A stretch of 64,000 nucleotides of DNA from Lama guanicoe. Lineage: Eukaryota. Positions 1 to 22,200 of the stretch are shown in pieces. The position numbers were made by a program, and so were the translations under genes. The notes beneath the pieces are model-generated. The model searched no databases. It was not told the DNA's origin and worked only from the letters and a program-made list of their open reading frames with translations. Where the stretch lies: the NCBI GenBank assembly GCA_013239625.1, contig MU053873.1, positions 882,524-946,523 on the forward strand. Reading direction: 5' to 3'. Position 1 is the first letter of the stretch. Each line of letters starts with the position of its first letter.

Positions 1-463
1 TGGTGCAGGGAGCTGCAGGTCCTGGAGCAACCTGGGTACTGGTCACCTGTGAGGGCTGTACCCCAGGCCACAGCCAGAGTGGAGGGGCTGTGGAGACCGA
101 CCCTGCTATTCTGGCCCAGATGCCAGAAGCAGACTGGGAAACCTGAGGACCAGGCCAACAGACTCATTTCACAGGTGAGGAAACAGGCTTGGGGGTGGTG
201 GCGGTGGGAGGGTGGCACCCCAGGGTCTGGTGGCTCCTTGCTCTCCTGGCCTCTCTGACGCTGTAGCCATGACTGGACACCTGGGGGCTGCTCACCGACC
301 CTCACTCCCCAGCTGGCCCCTAGGAGCCCCGGCCTCAAAGCCCTGTTCTGCAGGTGGGTAGCGAAGGCCACTGAGAAGAGGGGAGAGGCTCCTGGCCCTG
401 CCCAGCTGCCCCTATCTAAGCACACAGAGACCAGGCTGGGGGTAGGGAATCGGGCTGGGGGCC

Positions 464-469
464 TTTATT
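464..469 (-). terminator. EMID1: EMID1 polyadenylation signal AATAAA (3' UTR about 445-1094)
   Basis: TTTATT on the plus strand; GU-rich downstream element (tctctgtgtg) near 421-430 on the minus strand. Confidence 0.75.
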
Positions 470-1094
470 GGCTGATATACATCTACCTCCTGGTGTCTGT
501 CACAAGCATTTGTGGGAGCAGGTGGCCCTCCCCTCTCCATACACTCACTACCCGGCCATGGGAGGGGCTGAGGGTTCAGGGGTCAAAACTGAGACTAGGA
601 GGTCTCAGTCAGATCAGGTAGCTTGACCTCAGAGAAAACAGCACCGGAAAACAAAGGGAGGAGAGGTACAGGCTCGCCCCCAGGCCTGGCTGGGGAGGAG
701 GGGTGGCGACACTGCGCTCCATCACCCCTGCCTGTGCCTGAGGGAGTTCCGACTCCCTCAGCTGCTTGGGGCCTGGAAGGCCAGGCAGTAGATGAGACAG
801 GAGCTGCCGGCTGCCACGCCCTCCCCGCAGGCCGGCCCTGCCCCTTCACAGAGGGAAATGGGCCCAGGGCCCTGAGCCTCGCCTCCCTCTCAGGCCCCAG
901 TCCCGGCCCAGCCCCATGGGGCAGACGTGCACGGGGTGCCAGAACCAAGACCTGCCTACCCCAAAGGCCTAGGTGGCAGAAGGGACCCTGAGGATATTAA
1001 TAAATATGGACGCACGGACCCTGGAGGCAGCGGGCCACATCCAGGCTGGGCAGGGAAGCCTGGTCCGGCCATACTGGAGGGGCCGCCACCACCC

Positions 1095-1219
1095 TCAGTC
1101 TCTCTCGTTTCGGCTCCTGGGGGCCACGATCCGGTAGTTGGCTGCGTATCCTCCCCTCTTGCCCCGCAGGAGGCTGGGGGTGCCTGTGCCGGCAGGGCCT
1201 GCCCCCGACCCCTCTGGTT
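1095..1219 (-). CDS. EMID1: EMID1 last coding exon ([41 protein letters not shown])
   Basis: Acceptor ccggcag, TGA at 1097-1095, matches the recalled EMID1 C-terminus. Confidence 0.94.
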
Positions 1220-4200
1220 CTGCCGGAGGGAAGGAGAGAGGCCGGGTTAGTGAGATCTGTGTGCAGGGCCCGCCTCCCCTCGGCCCACGGTGGGTGGAGG
1301 GTGGGCTCTCTGCCCTGGCTTCTGGGAGGCAGAGCTGTGGGAAATACGGGGGTCTTCACAGCTGGTTAGTGCCCCTCCTCCCAGGAGTTATTAGCCCTTA
1401 ACCCAGCTAGCACACTCAGGGCCTCTGATTTTCTCTGTCAAGTGGGGATGAGCGAATCCACCATATTTCTGAAATGATGAGCACATGTGAATGTTCCATG
1501 AAAAGTATGGCTTTTTCTCGTTAACACATTTTGGGGTGGACATGTGCCCTGAATCATCGCCATTTCACATCTGGGTAAACTAAGGTCAGGCATCAGACCC
1601 TTCCTCTCTCCTCGGGTTAGGCCACCTGTAGTGGGGAAGGGTTTAGGAAGGTCAGGCTCTACCACTGACCTGGGTGGCTTTGGACCTCTGTCAGGGCCTC
1701 AGGTTCTCATCTCTAAAACCAGGGGGATGATTCCAAATACAATGAGGCCCTGGCCAGCTCCAATAATTACTGAAGTCAATTCCAACTTGGCTATGGTGAG
1801 ATATGACCTAACCTGCAAATAAGCTGGCCTCCAAGAGTGAAACTGAATAATTGGCATTCTTCCCATCTGGAAAACTACTCAGCCTTCAAAACCCAGAACA
1901 GGGCCTACCTTCTCCAGGAAGCCTTCTGTGACTTTTACCTCAGTCTCTCAAAGTTAAATGAGGTGTTAGGTCAGGAGGATGGACTTTTTCCAAGGGAGAG
2001 GCCCAGGATGGAGGACTTGGCTGAGCCTCCAAAACCCTGTTCATAGGACGGACACTTGGACTCTGGGAGCACCAGCTTCCCACTGAAGGCACTGCCAGGG
2101 CAATGAGCTATACCCTTGTAACCTGTCTTGTGCCCTGACCCTGTGCGCTGTAGCTTCCCATGTACTTCTGGGCTGAGATTTGAGGCCCCTGGGGCAGACA
2201 GGTATCTGCGGTCACAGTCAAGGAACATATCGTGCCCTAAACCAGGGAGCACAGGAGGAGGGCAGCACAGAGCTCAGGTTCCACATCATCCAGGGCCAAG
2301 TCCTGGCCCCACCATGTCCCACTTAAGTGGCCTTGGGCAAATCCCAGAATCCTTGGGCCTCACTTGCAACATGGGGATGACACTCCTGTTGTCACACCCT
2401 CACAAAGTGTTTAAAATGACCAGGAGTGGAGAGTGGTTTCCACAGTAAATTCTGGATCACTATGGTCACTTGATTGGTGTGCTTTCAACCCGGTCTCCTG
2501 CAGGTCTGGTCACTGTGAGTGGGTCATGAGATGGTGTTCCGACAGGATCAGATGTAGGCCCTTGGTCTCCCCTGCCTGGGCCCCACTCAGTGCTGAGCAG
2601 AGCAGAGGGGTCAGTGAACCTTTGCTGATGGAGCCCAAAGAGCCAGCACTTTAGAGGACAGGCCTAGGGCAGATCCCTGACCTCACCATCACTATCCCTG
2701 TGTCCCTGGGGGAGTCACGCTAGCCCTCCGAACCTGTTTCTTCATCTCTGAAGTGCGCACGGTATCACCCACCTAGAAAGCTTGTTGCAATGACTGGAGA
2801 CAGTTGATGTAAATCCCCCAGCGCATGTGGGCTGGGTGTATGACAGCTGATAACTATTATCATTATTGACTAGAATCTAAACATGAGCCCCATCTGGGTC
2901 TTCCCTTAGCACCTGTTGTGTATGATGGGCCAGTGAGGGAGGTCCCACCACCTCTGCTCCTCTCCTCCCACACAGCCCCTTCTAGGCCCACAACGCACAC
3001 TGGCTTGCGGGGCCGCTCTTTCAGGCTCATGGCCACACTGAACCTGAGCCTTCCCAGGAGCCTGGTACTTCCTCCCCAGGCTGCCGGAGACAGCTGGCTG
3101 AAGGCGGGTGGGATACAGATCCAAGGCCACATCCTCCTGGCCCAATCCTCCTGAGAAGGGAGGTGGGGGACACCTGAAAAGGAGCTGAGAGCCTGGGATT
3201 TGGTCCCTGGTCCCTCTTTTGTGAGAGGGAAAGTCTGGGAGATGGTGACACTTTCAGAAGTTAGGGAAGCCACGTGGCCTGGGGAGAGGAGTTTTGGAAG
3301 CAAGACCCCGCACACCTTCCAGCCTCCAGGCCTTTGCCCACACCAGGCTCTGTAAGGGCTGCCTTTCCCACCTCCTCCTGGCACACTCGTAGGGATCATT
3401 CATAACTTAACACGGGCTCCATCTTCCAGGAAGGCTTCTCCGCTCACACACCCTTTGGCGCTACTGTACCCCATGACCCATGACCCTCATCTCTAGAGGT
3501 GTTGGGGATCCCCCACTCAATGGGCAGCTCCCCCAGGCAGGGACTCTGAGATCTGCCTCAGCACCTGCCCAGACCTGGCATGCTGTAGGTACACCCTACA
3601 GTTCTGCTGAATGAATGAGGCTTGGCTTTAACCTTGGCTCTCCTTCCTGCTTAGGGCCTCAGTTTCCCCATCTGTAAAACAGACGCGAGGTTGGGCATGA
3701 TGTCTGAAGCCAATGTGCACTGATGTGCTAGGACTGGGCTGTGAGATGGGGCAGCTGGAAGTGGGAGAAGGGCAGCTGTTGGGGTCTCTTCGTGGGTAGC
3801 TGAGGAATGGGGCTCAGCCCCGAGGGCCGCCAATCCCTGGTTCTCTCCAGGGCCAGCCACAGGCTTCAGTTTAATGCAGAGAGACCTCCTGAGCCCCACT
3901 GTGACAGCCAGGTAGTGTCTAACCTTCTGTGCCTCCCCAACCTACCTTTGAAGACCTCAAACAGGGCCCTGCCAGATCTTCTAGCCTGTTCTCACCCCTC
4001 GGCAACCTCACGGAACAATCCCTCTAGGTTCTCTCTGGCCTCTTGGCTTTTGTCCATGCTGTTCCTCTGCCTGTTCACTGTCCCTGGTCCTTGCCTTTCA
4101 TGTCTCCTCTTAGACACTTCCTCGTCCAGGAAGCCCTCCCTAGATGCCCTCTGCCATCTCCCCATCTATGTCAGGAGCACTTCTGTGCTTTCGTGGCTGC

Positions 4201-7200
4201 CTGTGATATTCCTCACCATAGGTTTAACAGCCAGTTCCAGGGCTCCCTTGCCAGCACCCTAAGCTCCACGAGACCAGGACTGTTATCTGTTGGAGCCTGT
4301 GCTCATTCACTCAAGAACTAGTTACTGGAGCTTTCTCTGTGCCAGGCACTGTCTGAGGGCTGGATGGAAGGGCTAAGAGCAAGGGTCTGCTAGCATGGGT
4401 CCAGCATTGGAAGGTGCCTTCTGTGTCCCCCAGGCCCTTCCTGGAAGGGGCTGCCCCTGCCTGCCCGCCCTGCCGTTACCTGGCCAGATGATGGCTTCCA
4501 GCAGGGTGACCCGTCTGGCCAGGAGCTCCAGCTGAGCCTGCTGCTGCAGGAAGCTCTGTAAGCTAGGAGCCTGATGGGAGATCGAGAAGAGCAGACGGTG
4601 CGAGTCCGGCCTCCGGGGTCTGGGCCAGGGAGCCAAGGGCGGGGGCAGGGCTCCTAGGCAGGAGCCTGGGCAAGTCTCAGTTGAGACCCTGGTCTCTCCT
4701 TCTAAGTGGGGATGGGACTGGCCTGGCTCCTCAAGTGACCAGATGGGTGATGAACTGGTGGGTGAATGCCTGGGGAAGGGTCTCAGCCCACTAAAGGGGA
4801 ACGCTGGGGCCAGGAGAGCCTGCTCAGTGAGAGCCTCTGGGGTCGGAACTGATGGGTGGTACATTCCCCAGAGTCTCCTGGGGCCCGAGCCTGGCTCTGT
4901 CACCCACAGCCCCCTGCACTTCTGGAGTCTAGCCCCATGTCTGTTGCCCTGTGGATGTGCACACTGGCTCTGTTCCCCACAATTTCTCTACAGCCAAAGC
5001 CTCGCTGGAGTCTTGGGTCCATTACCCATAATTCTCCGCTGGGCCTGGGCTCTGACTTTATTACCCACAATCCCCTGCACTGCTGCAGTCTGGCTGTTAC
5101 CCACAGTCCCCTGCTGCTCTAGAGTTTGGCTCCATTGCCCATAATTCCTTTCAGACTCGGAATCTGTTAGCACTGGTTCCCCTGCAGGCCTGGAAACCAC
5201 ATTACCCACAATGCCCAGAGGCCCGGGTCTGACCGCAGGGGTAGGGGCCCGGGTTGCTAGGGCCTCCGTTCACCTGTGGACAAGGGACCAGTCAGTCATT
5301 GAGGGAGGGGTGGTCTTGGCCTCTCAGGCCCCCACCTGCCTGGGGCAGGTCCATTCTCCAGCCTCTTGACTGGGGAAGGCTGGCGGGCGGGGGCTGGGCT
5401 GTCTGTCCGTCTGTCTGTCTCTACTCACCGTAGAGCCCAATCATTGTTTCCAAGATTAAAACCCTTTCAGCTAAAATCTTCAAAGCCTCGCGTAGTTGGT
5501 GCAACCCCTCCCCCTGTGGAGGAAAGAGACAGATGCAGCCGTGAAGGGGGCAGGGGAGGGGCCCTGCAAAGCTTCTTGGTGGCCCATGCCCCGCCCTGGA
5601 CATGCACCTGCAGCCCCGCACCACCTGCCGCAGCCCAGGGCCCACGGACAGCAGGGACAAGGCCAGGGGAGGATGGGAGAGGGATAAGGCAGGCGGAAGC
5701 AGCCCCCTGGTAAGATCCCACCCAGCTGGCTGCTCTCTCCCCACAACCCTGCAAATCCTGCTGCGCTGGGGGCAAAGGAGGCCAGTCTGCAGGGCAGCGC
5801 TGCCTTCCCCTGCCCCGGAACCTGCCCTGGCCCCTCCCCCAGCTCTGTTGCCTGAAACCAGTTGTTCTCACATCATCTGCATGATCCCTGCCACATCCCT
5901 GGGCCACTTATACTTTTGTTTACCTAATATTCTTTAAATTGACCCAATTTTGCCTTATATACTACGTTTGTCTCATCCTAATTAACTCCGTCAGTGGGAT
6001 CAGGCTATTTACCAACATCCTTCCCATTCACTTCAAAACGAACATACGAGTAAAATTACAAAATGTTTGAGGGCTTCGCTGTTGGGAAGCTATGCTTTAA
6101 ACGCTGGCAAAGCTGAAGTTCAGGCCCAGGTGCCCCCTCCACAGCCTCTGGGCTCATACCTCCCTGAGCTGTGACTACTCCAGGTCCCTACACTGCTCCT
6201 CCTAGTGCCCTGGCCTCAGCCCCGCCCTCTCTTCTCAGCTGAGTCTCCAGCATCCACACCCAGCAATGCGGCAGTAGCCCACAGGCCAGCAGCCCCTGGC
6301 CTCCCTGCTCTGGGAGTCTCCTTTCTCAAGTGGTGCCAGCTGCTGCCTAGGGCTCTGGCCAGGGACCACAGCTGGCCCTCACCTTCACTCCCTCCCAATC
6401 TGTCCTTTCCTTCCCCAGCACCCAGTCCATGGTCTTGTCAAAACTCCACAGCCCCTCACTCCTTCCTCTTCCCTAGTCCAGACTGAAGCTATTCCAGAGT
6501 GTAGAACTCTTAATTCCGACAGAGCACCAGGGTGGCAAATAAACTATTCCAGCCCTGACAGATCTGGGCGTCTCTCTCACAGTCCTTTACTTAGTACAGG
6601 TTAAATGAAGGGATGCTGTATAATATACATCTTGGTACAATCACTACCTTCAAGGTTGCTGTTCCCACAAAAACATCAAACAACCCAATGTGTTCTAAGT
6701 GAGCCCACTGAGGCCATGCTGGGACTGTCCGTTATGATCCAGGTGTTCTGTCCACGTCATATGGATGGGGCTACCCTCAGGCCACCAACTGGCCATCAAG
6801 CCTGGGGGTCACAGGGTCACCAAGGGCTGCACCCTAAAGTAATCTCTCTTTAAGCATTACCTCCATCTAAAAATGGATGGGCTCCACAAATTACATTAAG
6901 CCACTGCTGGCATGGACAGTGGGACAAGCTGACATCACGAGCCTCCTGAGCAGATGCAGTAAGAGGGCACTGCATCTCCCACCAGTGCGCTGGCCAAGGG
7001 TATTGAACCTGCATCTCATCACCAGGGAACAATCAGACAAATCTAGACAGTGGGATAGTCACAAAAAGACAAAGACAAGAAAAAGAAGAAAAAGGCAGGG
7101 GGCCTGTTCTAGGTTGAAAGAGACTAGAGAGAAATTTATGGCAACCAAAGGCAATACATGAATCTTGATTTTTTTTTTTGAAAACCAGCTACAAAACACA

Positions 7201-10200
7201 TTTTGGGGACAACTGGTAAAATGGATACATAAGCTGTATATTAAGAGGCGTCACTTCAATGAATTAATGTCACCTTGCTGTCACAGTGGTATTGTGGTTC
7301 TTTGGGAGAAGGCCCATATTCTTTCAAGACACACTGACGTGTTATGGGAGATATGGATGAGGTTTGCAAATTACTTTCAAGTGGATTAGAACAAGGGCTG
7401 TAAATATATACAGATAGAGCAAATGTGGCAAAGTACTAATAATTGATCAGTCTAGTAGAAGGGGACAGCTTTTCTGTTTGAAATTTTTTAAAGTAAAAAT
7501 CTAGGGGAAAAATTTTAAAAAATTCTGGTGAGTGGCCTGCTGTTTGCACTGGTGACACCCCAGTCCCCTCCCAGCCTGGCCTGAGTGTCCAGGGCCTGCT
7601 GGATACCCCACTTGGCTGTCACACAGACGTTTCCCATTTTCCATGGACAAAACTCAGCAGGCTGCATCTCCTGGCTCTTTTACTATTGTAAACATCTCCC
7701 TTAACTTCTCGCTCCCCCTCACAGCCAGGCTAGCACCCAAGCGTTTCTTAGCTTCACTGACATCTGCCCATCCTCTCTGTCCCCCCTCCCGGTTCAAGCC
7801 CCCAGAGTCTCTTGCCAGGATGACCGTGACAGCCTCCAGCCTAGTCTCTCTTTCGGCTACCACATTGCTCTCTTCTCCCATCCGTTCTCCACACGGCAAT
7901 CAGAGGGATCTTTTGCAAACAAAAATGTGATCACTTCATTCCTCTACTTATAAATATTTCAATGACTCCCCACTGTCCATAGAGCAAAGTTCAAATTCCT
8001 CAGCTTGGCCTCTTATGTGCTAAAAGCCCCTTTGACCTCTGTATCACCCCTTGCCTGACACACTCTGCCACGGCAAGTATTTGCAGCTCTTCAATCACAA
8101 CCAGGCTCACTCGTGCCCCAGGGCCCTTGCATGTGATGTTCCCACTCCTCTGCCTGCATACCCTTTGTCTGGTTAGTGCACCTTTCAGGCTTTAGCCTGG
8201 GTCCCCTCATCCAGGAAGATGCTAAATCCTCCCACATCACAGCTGAGCTCCCCCGTCCTGTCACTGCTGGTACTGGTCTGTTTTCCCCCCACCCCACTGT
8301 GACCATCCTGAGAGTGGGGACTATGTCCAAAATACATCTATTGCCACAGTGCCTAGCCTGGGGCCTGGCACCTATCAAGGAGGTGCTTGGGGAAAGTTAG
8401 ATGGCTCCTCCAGTCCTGGGAGCTGAAAAGCCTGGGCTTCAGCTCCAGTTCTGCCAATAAGTCGCTTTATGGAGTTGTGCGTCAGTTTTTCCTGTCTAAG
8501 TAAGGGGTAGAAGCTTTGGTGTAGATGGGCCAGCTCAGCCCTGTCGCTCCGAGGCAGTGCCTGCAGTGCATCCTCATAACCACCGGGTGTCACTGCTGAG
8601 TCACAGCCAGATCAATAGCTCCAGAAGCTTCACTAAGTGGGGGTTGGTAGGTGGATTTGTGCATAGGAGCTGTCAGGGCCCTTCCCCACATGAACCTCAT
8701 CCCCACCTGCCCCCAACAGAGCTGGTCCCCCAGCCCCCAAAGCCTCATGCAGCCCCCAGGCCAGCGGGTCCCATCCCAGGCGGGCAGCAAGCAGGGGCAG
8801 GAGAATGGGTGAAGGGGAGGCAGGTGGATGGGCAGGGGCCCTGCTACCTCTTGGGGGGCCCCCTCCCACAGGTGGTCCTGAGTTTGAGGCCTGTTCTGGG
8901 AGAGTTCAGGCATCTGTTCTGCATGGGGTCCCAGATGGAGCTGCTCAGCCTAATTCAGCCTTCATCTCACCTCTCCCTCCTCCCCTGGGCTGGGTGAAAA
9001 ATGTTTCCAAACCAAGGGTCTCTGGCAGAGGCCAGTGAAGGGGCCTCGGGGAGGTAGAGGGCTGGCTGACCCCCACTCCTGTTCACGCCCGCCCCGTGCT
9101 GACAGGATGCTTAAGAGGCTCTGGAGTGCGTAGTGGGTGGAGGGGGGTGAGGGAGCAGGGTGGCTGCGAGGGGCTGGGAGAGGCTTGCCAGAGAGGTAGC
9201 AGGGCCCCAGAAGTCATGGAGAGCCATGGGGGAGGGCTCGTGCAGGGTGGGGGGCTCCCACGGCTGAATCCGTCACTGACCCCACAGTCAGGAGCAGAGA
9301 GAGCAGGGCAGGCGCTGGGTGCTTCCCATGTCTTCATTAACTAGTGCCTGCCAGGAAGCAGGGCAGCCCAGCCAGACTGCACCGGGGAGAGGGGTGGGGG
9401 GACGGGGAGGCACAAACCAGCCTCCAAAAGAACGTCCCAGTTGTCTCTCCCGTCTGCCCCCATCCCAGCCATTTTCCAGATGTCTCCTGTGTCAGCAGTG
9501 GTTTCCAGGTCCCTGCCTTGTGGGGCTTTTGGTCCTCCCCCATGTGTCTCCTGGGTGGGGAGATTTCTAGGCCCTGAAATTCATTCAGTACAACTCTCTC
9601 ATGATTGTGAAGGTTTCTAGGTTCCCTTTCCCACTTACTCCATTGTATGTGAGTTTCTAGGCCTCCCTTCCCATTCTTCCTGGGCTGCTTTTGTGTACAG
9701 TGGTTTCTAGATCCCCTCGTCTTCATTTTCCATGGTTCTGCCATGCGTACGACAGCTTCTAGGCCGCTCCTCCCACTTCTAATGTGTTTCCTACGCATGT
9801 GATGGTGTCTAGGACCTCATGTTAATTGTAGGTCCTTTGAGTATAGTGGATCCAGGTCTTCTGACCCCATGTACCACGTACAATGTGTACATGGTGGTTT
9901 CTAGGCCTCCCTTCCTATGATTCATGGGTTTCCTATGTGTCTGGTGGTGTCTAGTTCCCCTGTTCCTTTTACCAAAGAGCTCCTGTGTACCTCAGCATTT
10001 CTGCCCCTCCCTTCCTTTGCTCCACGGCTTTCCTAAGGCCTCCTGTCCCATCCTTCTCTGTGGATATTGTTTTCATGTTTCCCCTTCTTCTGCAGACAGG
10101 GGAGCAGCAGCCAAAGCCCTCGCTGGGAGGGGACTCTGGAGGCAGGGGATGCAGTCTGGACTGGGTCAGCCCGAACTGCCCAGGAGGAACAGGCAGGGTC

Positions 10201-13200
10201 ACCCTGGCCCGGAAAGGCCACAGAGGGAAGGCAGAGGCAGGGGCAAAGACAGAGAGAGTGGAGCGTCTGCGGATAAAGGCGGCGCTGCCCACTGGGGATA
10301 GACGGACGGATGGGACAGGGAAGGGGGCTGGGGCTGAGACCTGTCAAGGCTCCTCCCTGGGAGACCAGGTGGCAAAGAGGATTTGGATGGGGTGCCCCCA
10401 CCCCAAAATAATCTCCTGAGTGCCCAGGGCAGGATGAGGCAGCGGGAGGTCAGTGCTGGGCGAGAGCTTACCCAGTGGCTCTTGTCACCAGGGTCTCCTT
10501 TGGGGCCAGGTTCCCCCTGCAGGAGGGAACTAACATGAGATCAAAGCGCAAAAAACAACTGCCAGATGGCAACGGAAAGTGATAAAGAGCAGCCAGAAAC
10601 GGAAAAATACCTGACCCTTGAAAGAAGGGAACCACACTGGGTAACGTCCATGTATTTACGGCTCTTCCTCTAGGGGCTCACCCCAGCCCTCTCCGCCTGG
10701 CACACAGCTCAAGTGGAAAGCTTTAGTCTCATTGGCCTGAGGAGTCAGAGGTTGGGGTTGATATGGCCAGAGGAGGAGGAAACTGAGAGGAAATACTGGC
10801 AAGCAGGGAGCCCGTAGGGGAGCAAACTCTATAAATACTCTTCTCTAATCCTTGGCTGGTCGGTAAAGTCACAAAGTGAGTCCGAGCGACATCCTAAAGC
10901 AAAAATCAACACTTTCCAGAGGAAGATTTCCCCCCACTAAGTCATCTAAAATTGTCCAGTATGCAACACAAAATTATTAGACATGTGAAGAAGCAGAAAA
11001 ATGTGACCTATACTCAAGAGGAAAACCAGTCAGTAGAAACAGATCCATAGCCAACCCAGATGCTGGAATTAGCAGACACAGAGCTTAAAGTATCAATGAT
11101 GAATGTTAAATTTTATGTTAGAGAATCTAGTGGAATTGATATAATGTGTGATGAGATGGGGAATTTCAGGAGGGATGTAAACATGGTAAAACAAACAAAA
11201 AAGAACCAAATAGAAATCCTGGAAATGAAAATGGTAACACTTGAAATAAAAAATTCATGGGGAGGGTAGAGCGCCTACTTAGCTTTCAGGAGGTCCTGGG
11301 TTCAATCCCCAGCACCTCCGTTAGGGAAAAAAAAAGGAAAAGAAAAAATTCATCAGCTGGGATTAACTGAAGATGGGCCATTAACGGAAGAAAGAATCAA
11401 TTAACTTGATGACAGGTGAATGCAATAATTCTAACTGAAGCACCGAGAGAAGATTTTGGGGGGGAGGGGCGGGTAATTAGGTTTATGTATTTACTTATTT
11501 TAATGGAGGTACTGGGGATTGAAGCCAGGACATCCTCGTGCATGCTAAAGCACACACTCTACCACAGAGCTATACCCTCCCCACAAAAAAGATTTTTTGA
11601 AAAAAAAACAGTACAGCCTCAATGACTCACGGGAGCCTCGATTAAGTGTAACTGGAGTCCCAGAAGGAGAGAAGAGAGCACAAGGAACAGAAAAAAAAAA
11701 TTTGAGGATATGTCAACCAGCTTTCTTCCAAATGTGATTGAAAAATAAAACAAAGCAGATTTCTGGTTTGGCGTATAAAGAGCTCAGAAGTCGCCATTCT
11801 GTCCTAACAAGTAAGAAGCCAAACAAACTGAAAAATCAACAACTCTTCTTTGAGGAGCCAAAGCCGTGAGGTCACAGAGCAAACCACTGCCCCCAAAACT
11901 GTAGAGACAGACAGGCGGGTCACAACCGACTGGACCGGAAACCTCCCTGGGACCCACTGCCCAACAGTGAAACCTAAATGTGATGACGAAATTCTGGAGG
12001 CTCAGTGTGCACCACACTGAGAGTTAAAACCTCCAGGGGGACCCAGTCTTTGCAAGGGACTCACACTTTTTTGAGTTTTACCTCCAGGGGCTTGATCTGG
12101 TCCCACTACGAACACTGGAGAAAAGTCCCCAACTGCTTTGGTCAGAGGGAGAGGGGAGAGGAGAGAAGGGAGACGGGAGAGGGGAGAGGACCCACCCTGA
12201 AATACCCCAGAGCATTCTGTTCTTCCTCACAAGGCCGGCCCGCAGGAGAAACTATTTCACCAGAGCCTAACCTGCTGGCGTCTTATCGGTGCCTAATTGA
12301 CGTGGGGGTAGGGACACACCCAACTTTAGCCAATTTTAGCCTTTGCGGGGAGGGAACTATCCCAACTCCAGACCCCTCTGGCCACCTTGTCCCACTTAAG
12401 GGGGAAAAACCAAAACAAAACTGGGAAGAACTGGAGGAGTTCACAGTCCAGGGGCACAGGCCCACCGGAACCCTGAGACCTAATCATACAACAATACATC
12501 ACTGCCTCCCCCACCCCAGCCCCTCACCACTACCTCACTAAAGGCCTGCTGACTGCAGTTTCCTTCACTCAGTACATCACGGCTACCTTTCAGCAAAAAA
12601 TTACAAGGCATATTACAAGGCAAAAAACACAGTTACAAGAGGCCGAATATCAGAACCAGAGTCAGATAGGCCACAAATGTTGGAATTCTCAGACCAAGAA
12701 TTTAAAATAAAAAACAACCATGATTAATATGCTAAGGACTTTCATGGAGAAAACAGACAACGTTTAAGAGCAGATGGCTCATATAAGCAGAGAGATGGAA
12801 ATCCTAAGAATCAAAGAGAAGTGCTGGGATTCAGTTGAAGGTCCTCTTCACAAGGTCAGTTAACTCAGGGCAATTAGATTCTTCCCAGGCCTCTTAAGAA
12901 ATTCTCTAATCCAGAGGGTGAGGACAGCTCAGTGGTACGCTGCGTGCCTAGCATGCACGGGGTCCTGGGTTCGATCCCCAGTGCCTCCATTAAGAGAGAA
13001 AGAAATACTCTAATCCTAGCAAAGGCCCTTCTTGCTGGTATCAGAGCCGTGGTCTGTAAACACAAATCCAGCAGAATTTCAGCCATTTATCTCCCAGATC
13101 ACCCCCTCCCTGAAGTTCAACCTAGAACAGGAAAAAATCATGAAAACTCTACCTACAGTCACAAATTCTTCAGTTTCCTGGCCAAGATTTCATGTTCCCT

Positions 13201-19200: not shown

Positions 19201-22200
19201 AATGCCCACTGACCGGGGTGGGGGACCGTGGGGGTCCACGGAGAAGTTGAAACTCTCGGGAAGACCCAGAACTGAGAACCATCCCCTAGATCTGAGACTG
19301 AGTTGCCCCTCATGCCAACTGCCCCTGGGAGGGAGCTTGGGGAGTGGGGTGGGGTGTTCCCGGGGTGCTCATACCTTATAATGGGGCTTCTAGCACATGT
19401 TGCTTACAAGTTTGGTTTTTCCACCTGATAGATACCTCAGGGACATCTTTTCACGTTAGAAAACGGAGGTGTTGCTAACAGCTGTCTAGTGTGCCAGGGT
19501 GCCACGCCCCCTCATTATGCAAACACCCCTTCCATTGTTTGGTTTTCAAATTTCCCTCTTAATAGTTAACACTTTAGTAAACACCTTCGCATCTAATCTC
19601 CTTAAGATAAATTCCCAGAGGAGGGAATGATAGAGAAATGGATCTGCAGACGAAGTATAAATGCCTCTATGTGTTTACAAAATCTGGAAGAAAAGATGCT
19701 TAAATGTTGATAATCTCTCTCTCTCAGGGCACAGGTGATTGACTGCTGTCAGTGATTTTCTGGCAGGTTTTTCATGGTTCTGAGTTTTTCATGTTTCTAA
19801 ACATAGAATGTCTTTCGTTTGAATTGTTAAGAACTTTTCATCTGGAAATAATTTGAGATGTGCAATAGATGACAGGGAAGATGGCATTTTGGGGAGGACA
19901 GGGCACGGAGGGGACCCAGCCATGCGTCTCTGGTTGGGACGGGGATGGGGCGCCTGGAGGAAGAGCAGGCCAGGCTGTCTGGCTGTGAGCAGGCTTCCCT
20001 GGAGGGAAGGCTGAAAAAGCGAGATAGGAACCAACGGGAGGGTGGTGCCTCCTGGCAGGAACACTGCTCACCCACCTTGGCCTCCAGCACCTTCAGCCGC
20101 TCCGTCAGCTCCGACACTTTGCTGCAGTTGAGACAACCTATGGGGAGGGAGGAGGCTGGGCCGGGGCTCCTGGGTTCCGCTCGGAGCCCCTCAGCCCCTG
20201 GGCGCGGGATGGTGGGAGAGGACAGATACCTGATGACCCCAACCCATAAGAGAGCCCATCGCAGGGAAGAGGCTATAGAGCCACAGCCTGTCTAGGGTGG
20301 GCCATGTCCTGCAGGGGTCCTTGGCTATGGCGCCCAGAGGGGACTGTTTCTCCCAGAGCAGGACCAGGGATGGGACCGACTCCTGGCAGCCTCCTCATCC
20401 CAGGGACCCCTTTTCCAGAAGCCAGGGTGGGAAAGCCTGTTGCTTCCCACCTGGGCAGGGCTGGCCTCGGCTTGCCGGCTTTGGGGACCGCACATCACAG
20501 TCCAGACTGGGGTGGCCTCAGAGGTGCCACCCTCTGACCCTCCTCCAGAACCACCATCCAGCTCTTCTGGCCTCCTCAGCGATACCCCTAAGTTATTTGT
20601 AAGAATGCCAGGCACCAGCCAGGCCCTCCACAAGCTCATCTCTTTGGTTCCCACCACGACCCTGCATGTTAGGATCAGTGTCACCCCCATTCACACCTGG
20701 GGATGCTGAGCTCACAGCGAGGGTGGAATGACAGGCACGAAGCCAGGGGTCAAGTCCCAGCGCTGCCCCTTCCTGGGTGTGGGGCCTCGGGAAGGGCATG
20801 TCCCCTCTCAAACCCTCAGCTTCCCCCTCTTTAAAGTGGGGACAATGATGCCTTCCTGGGGTGGGGGTACACTGTGAGGTTTAAACGCATTGACAATAGA
20901 AAGCTCCATCAGTGTCTGAAAGATTCTGGGGGTCCTGTGTCTCGGGGTGCCTGGGCCCAGGTTGGACTCCCCTTGAGGGCCCTTCCTCTTCCTCCCCCTC
21001 AAAGTTTTCTTTCCAGCCTGGTGTGGACCAGGGCAGGGCGCTGTCCCTGACCCTCCACTGCTGGGCCCAGATGGCTTTTAGGACGGTCACCACCAGCCCT
21101 TCCAGGTCTCCCCTAGTCCAGAGGGACCCCAATCAGCTGCCCCAGGACCCACCTGAGAAGGCTGTGGGCTGAAGTGCCATCCGCCGCATGGCACTGCCCG
21201 GCCACCCGGGCTCCACGAAGCCAGAGGAGCCTGAAACTGAGGGACAGTGAGGATAAGCACCCTGCTGGCTGTGACGCTTCATTTTGTCCACCCCCCACTC
21301 TCCCACCTGCCACTGTAGCTGCAGCAGGGATCCGTATTCCCCTTAGTGCAGAGGGAGACAGAGGCCCAGAGAGGTGGGGAAGTTTACCTGTGTCACACAG
21401 CATGAACTGGGCTGAGCTGGAACATGGCTGTCAACCTGATGGGCCTGGGAGAGGGGCTGGCAGTGGGTGGGGGCTTCCCAAGCAACCCTAGCCAGCTGCA
21501 TGGATTAAGAGCTTAGAGAGAGGAGATGCAAGGTTGGGGCCCCACCCCACCACTTGCTGACCCGTGCGACTTGCCCTCTCTGAACATCTCTACAAGGGGT
21601 CAGAAGGCCTCTACGCCTCCAATTGGCATGACGCCTGAGGACAGCGATACGTGCAAAGGGCCCACTGTGCGCACGCAGGGCCTGACACGCAGTAGGCACT
21701 CAGTACCGCAGCCACGTCCACCCTCTCTCTGCCCCACTTGGGTAAGAAGACACCCAAGTGGATCCAGCCCTGGTTTTAAATGAAAACCAGAGGGAGGCTG
21801 GCTGCCTGGGAGGGCATGGCGGGGGGGGGGCCGTTCCCGGAGCCCACCCCTGCCACCACCCCTGTGAGGAGCAGGCCGCCCTGGCTGGTCAGGCTTTGGA
21901 AGCCTGGCTTTCTCCACAGCTGGAGGCTTGGGCTAGCCAAGCCAGGGGTGGGGGGCGCAGCTGGAGGGGCTCTGAAGCCAGCAGTGACAATTGCCCCCCT
22001 CTGCACCCCCCCAGGCCTGCCTTTTAAGGCCACGAAGTGTCGCCTGGGGGGAGACAAGGCCCAAATAAGGCATGGGCCTGGCAGCTCAGAGCCAGCCTGT
22101 GGCTTAGTGCAGGGAGAGAGAGGCGCCGGGAACTCAAACCAGACGGGTCCCTCTGGCCAGCCCCCAGAGGGGAGGCTGCCAGGCCCTCTCGGGGTCCCAC

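Follow-up and report, generated by a model that had tools for sequence, protein, structure and literature searches.

A frame-coupled pair of homologous penultimate exons gives EMID1 two alternative versions of a predicted C-terminal coiled coil

Here we describe two alternative versions, 14a and 14b, of the penultimate coding exon of EMID1, located in a stretch of 64,000 nucleotides (nt) from Lama guanicoe (GenBank assembly GCA_013239625.1, contig MU053873.1, positions 882,524 to 946,523; hereafter the window). As judged from sequence comparisons, the two exons are homologous tandem duplicates. On balance, we lean towards the view that they form an old, frame-coupled pair whose exchange alters what the C-terminal rod of the protein binds or co-assembles with more than whether the rod oligomerises, the choice between them being set at the 3' splice site of 14a. 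Under this model, splicing would place one of the two exons, 14a or 14b, between exons 13 and 15, and each version would provide a helix of ~25 residues straight after the last collagen triplets, with hydrophobic a and d positions and an R-h-x-x-h-E motif in one register. In either case the product would be a parallel coiled coil of one kind, oligomeric and probably trimeric; the exchange would affect the exposed b/c/f face and the first core layers and leave a common core over the C-terminal 2.5 heptads. The choice is probably regulated through a 21-nt branch-site region that precedes 14a and is conserved between fish and mammals.

EMID1 lies on the minus strand, and a tblastn search with a bat EMID1 query placed all of its coding exons, from exon 1 (34463-34362) to the last (approximately 1220-1100), inside the window. 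The exon numbers 13, 14 and 15 are those of a preliminary description of this DNA, tblastn being too noisy in the collagen part; the pair corresponds to the penultimate coding exon. That description had placed 14a and 14b 858 nt apart, each running from phase 0 to phase 1 between usable splice sites, and all of its coordinates hold (Table 1). The intron between exons 13 and 14a measures 4958 nt, and the last intron, between 14b and exon 15, measures 3260 nt.

Table 1. Window coordinates of the EMID1 exons and intronic features considered in this study.
Feature	Position	Strand	Description
Exon 5	20040..20138	-	Further R-h-x-x-h-E motif, RLKVLE (tblastn of P0138 on the window)
Exon 13	10472..10516	-	45 nt, 15 residues; last Gly-X-Y triplets and SHW; ends in phase 0; donor TGG/gtaagc
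Conserved intronic element	5527..5547	-	21 nt, 14-34 nt upstream of 14a; branch-point-like CUUCAC followed by GGCUGCAUCUGUCU
Exon 14a	5429..5513	-	85 nt, phase 0 to 1, 28 residues; acceptor ctctttcctccacag/GGGGAG, donor ACG/gtgagt; COL26A1-like version
Degenerate repeat, core TGTGGGTAA	4900..5210	-	In the 14a-14b intron; families D1-D5 by repeat search, nothing by Tandem Repeats Finder (TRF)
Exon 14b	4480..4570	-	91 nt, phase 0 to 1, 30 residues; acceptor tcgatctcccatcag/GCTCCT, donor CAG/gtaacg; EMID1-specific version
Exon 15, coding part	1095..1219	-	Starts in phase 1, common to both isoforms; dibasic RGKR; stop codon 1097-1095

The cores of the two exons had been reported to align at 8 of 15 residues in one heptad register, and this alignment was reproduced. 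The best ungapped BLOSUM62 segment between the peptides scores 41, at an offset of three residues, a value reached by none of 3000 shuffles of 14b, and profile-profile comparison (hhalign; 13 distinct 14a against 45 distinct 14b peptides) returned a probability of 82.6% and an E-value of 9.6e-6 over 21 columns. We therefore accept tandem exon duplication, as originally proposed, on the strength of these homology scores together with the same position, the same phase, the near-equal length and the common register. The two exons are neighbours, lie between common flanking exons, are similar in length and are equal in phase, which are the structural features of a mutually exclusive pair.

Joining of the exons by script confirmed that either of the two connects exon 13 to exon 15 in frame, 13+14a+15 and 13+14b+15 reaching the identical stop codon. 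When neither exon is used the frame of exon 15 is shifted, and when both are used (13+14a+14b+15) the reading frame closes after GLYGS, with the stop at the third codon of 14b and 83 nt short of the last junction. Given that the exons are 85 and 91 nt long, neither a multiple of three, only the either/or products retain the conserved C-terminus. Transcripts in which translation stops more than 50-55 nt upstream of the last exon junction are subject to nonsense-mediated decay, and the double-inclusion transcript, with its stop 83 nt before that junction, is therefore eligible for it. A transcript carrying both exons is thus unproductive by frame, as is expected of a mutually exclusive pair.

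Exclusivity is accordingly imposed by the reading frame and not absolutely by the spliceosome. The exons had been described as mutually exclusive; the either/or relationship is indeed enforced by frame, but strict exclusivity is not borne out, given that a wood-mouse (rodent) model (P0226) ends in GLYGS, exactly the double-inclusion product, and a cat model (P0019, Prionailurus X6) holds 14a and 14b in frame by means of 7 extra residues. The 7-residue linker of the cat model comes from 14a-14b intron sequence, and a further predicted isoform (P0023, Hyaena X11) likewise draws on this intron, a long upstream extension being spliced onto 14b. Steric or U12-type exclusivity was ruled out, as the intron between the exons is 858 nt long in the window and 179 nt in a teleost, all sites are GT-AG and the donors are of the U2 type. 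In both the window (4562-4570) and the teleost contig L009 (1782-1790), 14b has AGC as its third codon, with a T before it, such that the +1 frame meets a TAG at once; this shared stop may be either a selected safeguard or a product of chance.

The premature stop raises an alternative in which 14b acts mainly as a regulatory poison exon after 14a, lowering EMID1 output, with the 13-14b-15 protein a minor by-product. The position of the double-inclusion stop relative to the last junction, the presence of the same +1-frame TAG in the teleost, and the GLYGS terminus of the wood-mouse model are all in keeping with such a role. We nonetheless judge it very unlikely, because in the 13-14b-15 frame the final 17 residues of the 14b peptide are near-invariant in 91 proteins from teleosts to mammals, because the differences between the window and the teleost fall mostly at third codon positions when a pure poison exon would need only its stop, and because intron-free 13-14b-15 open reading frames (ORFs) have been assembled (P0009 and P0247).

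Proteins carrying 14b were sought with a query consisting of the 14b peptide plus ten intron-encoded residues, added to meet the minimum query length. This search returned 75 proteins at E <= 10 among 113 candidates; none was named collagen XXVI, and the named matches were EMID1 of placental and marsupial mammals, turtles, crocodilians, lizards, snakes and many teleosts. The corresponding search with 14a returned 219 proteins, and among the 120 listed were birds, caecilians, lungfish, elephant shark and COL26A1. It is important to note that the database shows one representative per 90% identity cluster, so that isoforms hide each other. We therefore opened 10 clusters headed by a 14a isoform (56 members in all), and 8 of these held 14b isoforms: the armadillo (3 of 5 members), lungfish (2 of 3), two caecilian (3 of 9 and 3 of 4), wood mouse (1 of 3), ostrich (1 of 5), primate (1 of 5, the 14b form being that of a macaque) and marsupial (1 of 12) clusters. 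The emu and parrot clusters (5 members each) held none.

Six isoform pairs, from 5 species, differ by exactly two residues, the 14b form being the longer, as a clean exon swap predicts. The identical alternative is found in Apodemus sylvaticus X3 (444 amino acids, 14a) and X5 (446 amino acids, 14b), Dasypus novemcinctus X4 and X3, Microcaecilia unicolor X2 and X1, and Protopterus annectens X2 and X1, all of which are automatic models without any description. The mention, in the preliminary description, of a similar peptide in database isoform entries was thus well founded, isoforms with 14a and with 14b both being on record. Presumably, a 443-residue human EMID1 isoform is on record as well. 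A scan of 1.84 billion cluster representatives with 14b gave 17 proteins at E <= 0.001, all EMID1-like, including neognath-bird-like forms in which 14b is spliced to the collagen part and exon 15. Intron-free assembled ORFs exist for both forms, and for 13-14b-15 they comprise P0009, present on 9 contigs of which the longest is 2213 nt, and P0247; the corresponding genomic introns in the window are 3.3-5.9 kb long.

On a teleost-type metagenome contig (L009, 2479 nt), 14a (85 nt) and 14b (91 nt) are separated by a 179-nt intron, in the same order and phases as in the window, and the donors, gtgagtag for 14a and gtaacg for 14b, are those of the window. The preliminary description had staked its proposal on the frame and splice sites of 14b being conserved in other mammals, and both turn out to be kept far beyond mammals. 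These comparisons place the origin of the pair before the teleost-tetrapod split, making it much older than had been assumed. No shark 14b occurred among the 75 or the 17 matches, a weak negative given that clusters hide isoforms. We consider it highly improbable that 14b is an unused relic or an annotation artefact in L. guanicoe, as its frame is open in the window, its splice sites are intact and its peptide is identical to that of other mammals.

Searches of the 2.05 Gb genome from which the window derives gave four matches to 14a (itself, the exon of COL26A1, and two processed EMID1 pseudogenes) and one match to 14b, which was itself. The resemblance of 14a to COL26A1 (EMID2, collagen XXVI) that had been pointed out earlier amounts to 23 of 28 residues (82%) in the COL26A1 exon of the same genome. 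This exon is likewise the penultimate coding exon of its gene, is 85 nt long, has the same phase and uses the donor gtgagtag. Unlike EMID1, COL26A1 has a single exon at this place, its last intron is 706 nt long in this genome, and it has no 14b-like ORF or copy; a 14b profile found nothing 14b-like within 30 kb downstream of the COL26A1 exon. The exons that follow barely align between the two genes. Among non-self sequences the 14b profile ranked the COL26A1 exon first (8.4 bits), a 14-residue window ORF next (8.0) and the 14a exon of the window third (6.4), scores that are too weak alone to count. Because it is common to EMID1 and its paralogue, 14a is the ancestral type, and 14b an EMID1-only copy made before the teleost-tetrapod split. 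Both processed (intron-less) pseudogenes, L002 (G000:C1948:1-2881) and L004 (G000:C7496:23302-26373), go back to the 14a form; in one the sequence carries substitutions and its frame is shifted past GLY, and the other has TGA and TAA stops within its 14a part.

Both peptides are maintained by long-term purifying selection. Between the window and the teleost contig, 14a is identical at 22 of 29 first, 28 of 28 second and 10 of 28 third codon positions, and 14b at 25 of 31, 25 of 30 and 15 of 30, respectively; the concentration of differences at third positions therefore points to purifying selection on both. Positions 8-22 of 14a show no variation in any of 139 proteins (13 distinct peptides). 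In 14b, the last 17 residues are nearly invariant in 91 proteins (37 distinct peptides), and the first 13 differ between fish and tetrapods. The residues predicted to lie exposed at b and f are near-frozen within each exon type: K12, E16 and L19 of 14a in 139 of 139 proteins and T23 in 134 of 139, and, in 14b, R19 in 91 of 91 (a column fixed by the extraction pattern), A26 in 88, E15 in 85 and T22 in 83 of 91. Position 10 of 14b, a heptad d position, is Q in 44, L in 44 and M in 3 of 91 proteins, L being the teleost residue.

EMID1 has been reported as top-ranked for episodic diversifying selection, including towards its C-terminus, in an analysis using one isoform per species (bioRxiv 10.64898/2026.06.08.730821). 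Some species, for example several bats, showed only a 14b model in our searches. Mixing of 14a and 14b isoforms between species could mimic such a signal.

The motif R(g)-h(a)-x-x-h(d)-E(e), defined as trimer-specifying in PMC3653964 and allowing I, L, V or M at a and L, I or V at d, is matched by RVLILE in 14a, RVTLLE in 14b and RLKVLE in exon 5, as had been noted. Among the seven possible registers, the one set by the motif is that which gives the most hydrophobic a and d positions, with 8 of 8 in 14a and 6 of 8 in 14b. In AlphaFold2 monomer models each exon corresponds to one helix, at residues 375-399 in P0016 (14b; predicted local distance difference test, pLDDT, ~60-70) and 371-395 in P0138 (14a; ~55), and in both models a helix at 140-159 covers the exon 5 motif. 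The C-terminal helix begins 4 residues (SHW plus one) after the last Gly-X-Y triplet, and would thus be a helical domain flanking a collagen segment. Pfam identified only the EMI and Collagen families in both isoforms, and the ESM Atlas returned only EMID1 and COQA1 clusters with scores <= 0.81.

By its motif, the pair is comparable to the trimeric coiled coils of coronin-1, ccbeta and engineered cortexillin-1 (PMC3653964), in which the same g-a-b-c-d-e arrangement, with V at a and L at d, occurs within 3-4 heptads; this likeness lies in the motif, and the trimer is a prediction for the EMID1 peptides. A functional analogue would be the NC2 domain of collagen IX (PDB 5CTD/5CVA; PMC5126661), a short helical non-collagenous domain beside a triple helix that sets chain composition and stagger. 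It differs in having no significant sequence match to EMID1 (E 0.27 and 0.55) and in involving three genes instead of alternative exons of one. Secreted EMID1 has been observed as dimer and trimer on western blots by Kawata et al. (PMC8361151).

Over 22 aligned columns, 14a and 14b are identical at 8 of 13 a/d/e/g positions and at 1 of 9 b/c/f positions (one-sided hypergeometric p ~0.025, worked by hand), and within the last 2.5 heptads at 8 of 9 a/d/e/g positions, including the R...E pair, and at 0 of 6 b/c/f positions. The charge of the exposed b/f face is reversed, from K..E in 14a to E..R in 14b. In tetrapods, the first core layers also change, with L in 14a against F in 14b at a, and L against Q at d; teleost 14b has L at this d position.

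The preliminary description had proposed that the exchange switches chain selection, such that 14a would co-trimerise with collagen XXVI or with itself, and 14b would form EMID1-only trimers or trimers of other stability. The match of 14a to COL26A1 (23 of 28 residues), set against an exon 15 that barely aligns between the paralogues, fits this proposal, as do the restriction of 14b to EMID1, the differing first core layers of tetrapods, and the precedent of collagen IX NC2, in which a helical domain beside the triple helix picks chains (PMC5126661). Against it, the near-identity of the core over the last 2.5 heptads makes mixed trimers look feasible, and the polar d layer is not conserved, as shown by the L of teleost 14b. 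Because the motif-bearing core is the same in both exons, we rank chain selection below a change of surface and regard it as somewhat doubtful. Similarly tentative is a fuller version of the surface-exchange model, in which the switch keeps the trimer core and decides between a collagen XXVI-like form, with the same partners and possibly mixed trimers, and an EMID1-only form with its own ligand, under the control of the branch-site element conserved from teleosts (by read-through, the elephant shark) to mammals.

The swap might instead act on how the neighbouring collagen helix folds, through its nucleation rate, register or thermal stability, and leave partners and ligands unchanged. The proximity of the helix to the last Gly-X-Y triplet accords with this, and the junction to the triple helix does differ between the versions, 14a starting G-E-G and 14b A-P-S, with 14b two residues longer. 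We consider this explanation unlikely, as the exposed b/f residues are frozen within each exon type, which a pure folding role does not obviously require; exchange of the surface on a retained core remains the reading that we prefer.

Several observations weigh against this preferred interpretation. Pairwise BLASTP of the 28- and 30-residue exon peptides gave no alignment at E <= 100. Some of the conserved columns, namely positions 1, 22 and 24-26 of 14a and 19, 20, 23, 24, 28 and 29 of 14b, were fixed by the extraction patterns, and the database hits, being found through 5-residue words common with the query, are biased towards conserved sequences. The 14b isoforms are for the most part automatic models; no isoform from the same species as the window was found, the best match to its exon 15 peptide being 97% identical, and the two models P0226 and P0019 tell against absolute exclusivity. 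Changes at the c positions are conservative (I to L), so that the surface switch rests on four b/f positions and the N-terminal third. With respect to oligomer state, the AlphaFold2 models represent single chains and have low confidence (mean pLDDT 44.7 and 43.5), and no solved structure matched significantly, the best for the 14b form being collagen IX NC2 at E 0.27.

Full-text literature searches on EMID1 splicing, its paralogues and the core peptides found no description of the pair, consistent with the earlier statement that no functional account of it was known. The catalogue of human mutually exclusive exons of Hatje et al. (2017, PMC5740500) comprises exons with the same attributes, i.e. 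neighbouring, similar in length, same in phase, homologous and frame-coupled; its single EMID1 entry in the ten supplementary files searched is cluster 1973, which pairs exon 13 with an intronic candidate, and 14a/14b are unlisted there but may be in two further files. In the text available, Kawata et al. only "assumed" that EMID1 isoforms exist (PMC8361151), and a 2025 review describes the mechanisms of EMID1 as largely unknown and mentions, in the part accessible, only a "conserved C-terminal domain" common to EMID2 (PMC13326518). A 2026 preprint gives the canonical human isoform a length of 441 residues. The pair is thus present in databases, is an ordinary kind of splice switch, not a conceptual surprise, and is undescribed as far as the searches extended.

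EMID1 is among the least understood matrix proteins, and a C-terminal domain that comes in two versions, each near-frozen across bony vertebrates, offers a concrete handle on the function of this C-terminus. Any antibody, expression construct or evolutionary analysis based solely on the canonical (14a) isoform overlooks the 14b form, which clustering at 90% identity further conceals, 8 of the 10 opened clusters headed by 14a containing one.

The sequence upstream of 14a suggests where the choice between the exons might be controlled. The 21-nt intronic element listed in Table 1 matches the teleost contig at 18 of 21 positions, and none of 1000 shuffles reached its local score; around the other three exon flanks, common sequence between the window and the teleost is limited to the donor hexamers or octamers plus a stretch reading CTGCTCT. 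A 16-nt core of the element occurs twice in the 2.05 Gb genome, compared with once for a control pattern. Among 48 models that read through this end of the intron, the frame (H/D)G(C/W/S)ICL is found in 20, including models named for lynx, tuatara, crocodile, turtles and elephant shark, and the teleost frame LYLS in 4; the 24 with neither include 11 bird-named models and all 4 COL26A1-type models. Only GGCTGC and the CCAC(C)AG end recur in the acceptor region of COL26A1. We infer that the element is a candidate splicing-control element of 14a.

Competing RNA structures were considered and dropped, as no conserved pairing emerged, the best partners of the element in duplex scans lying at different places in mammal and teleost; two species are too few to exclude such structures. 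Folds around all four donors were no better than those of shuffled sequences (z -1.0 to +1.18), Rfam identified no family in window positions 1-11000, and TRF reported only a (CTGT)5 run. Inverted repeats are present at 4300-5700, among them GC-rich arms preceding 14a whose counterparts follow 14a and precede 14b (I6, I7 and D10). The core TGTGGGTAA of the degenerate repeat in the 14a-14b intron, allowing at most one mismatch, has 6 of its 18 window matches within 4900-5210, including all 3 exact ones, at spacings of 36-105 nt, and could provide G-runs or pseudo 5' splice sites. Immediately past the 14a donor, at 5405-5428 on the minus strand, lies AGAGACAGACAGACGGACAGACAG, which is complementary to CUGUCUCU in the polypyrimidine tract upstream of 14a; the AGAGACAGACAGACGGACAGACAG run is absent in the teleost.

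Exon 15 contains a dibasic R-x-K/R-R site (LLRGKRGG, window 1140-1165, minus strand) ~18 residues past the helix. Its counterparts read RDKR in teleosts, RNRR in lungfish and KMKR in COL26A1, and the site looks like a conserved proprotein-convertase site, cleavage at which would free the C-terminal tail.

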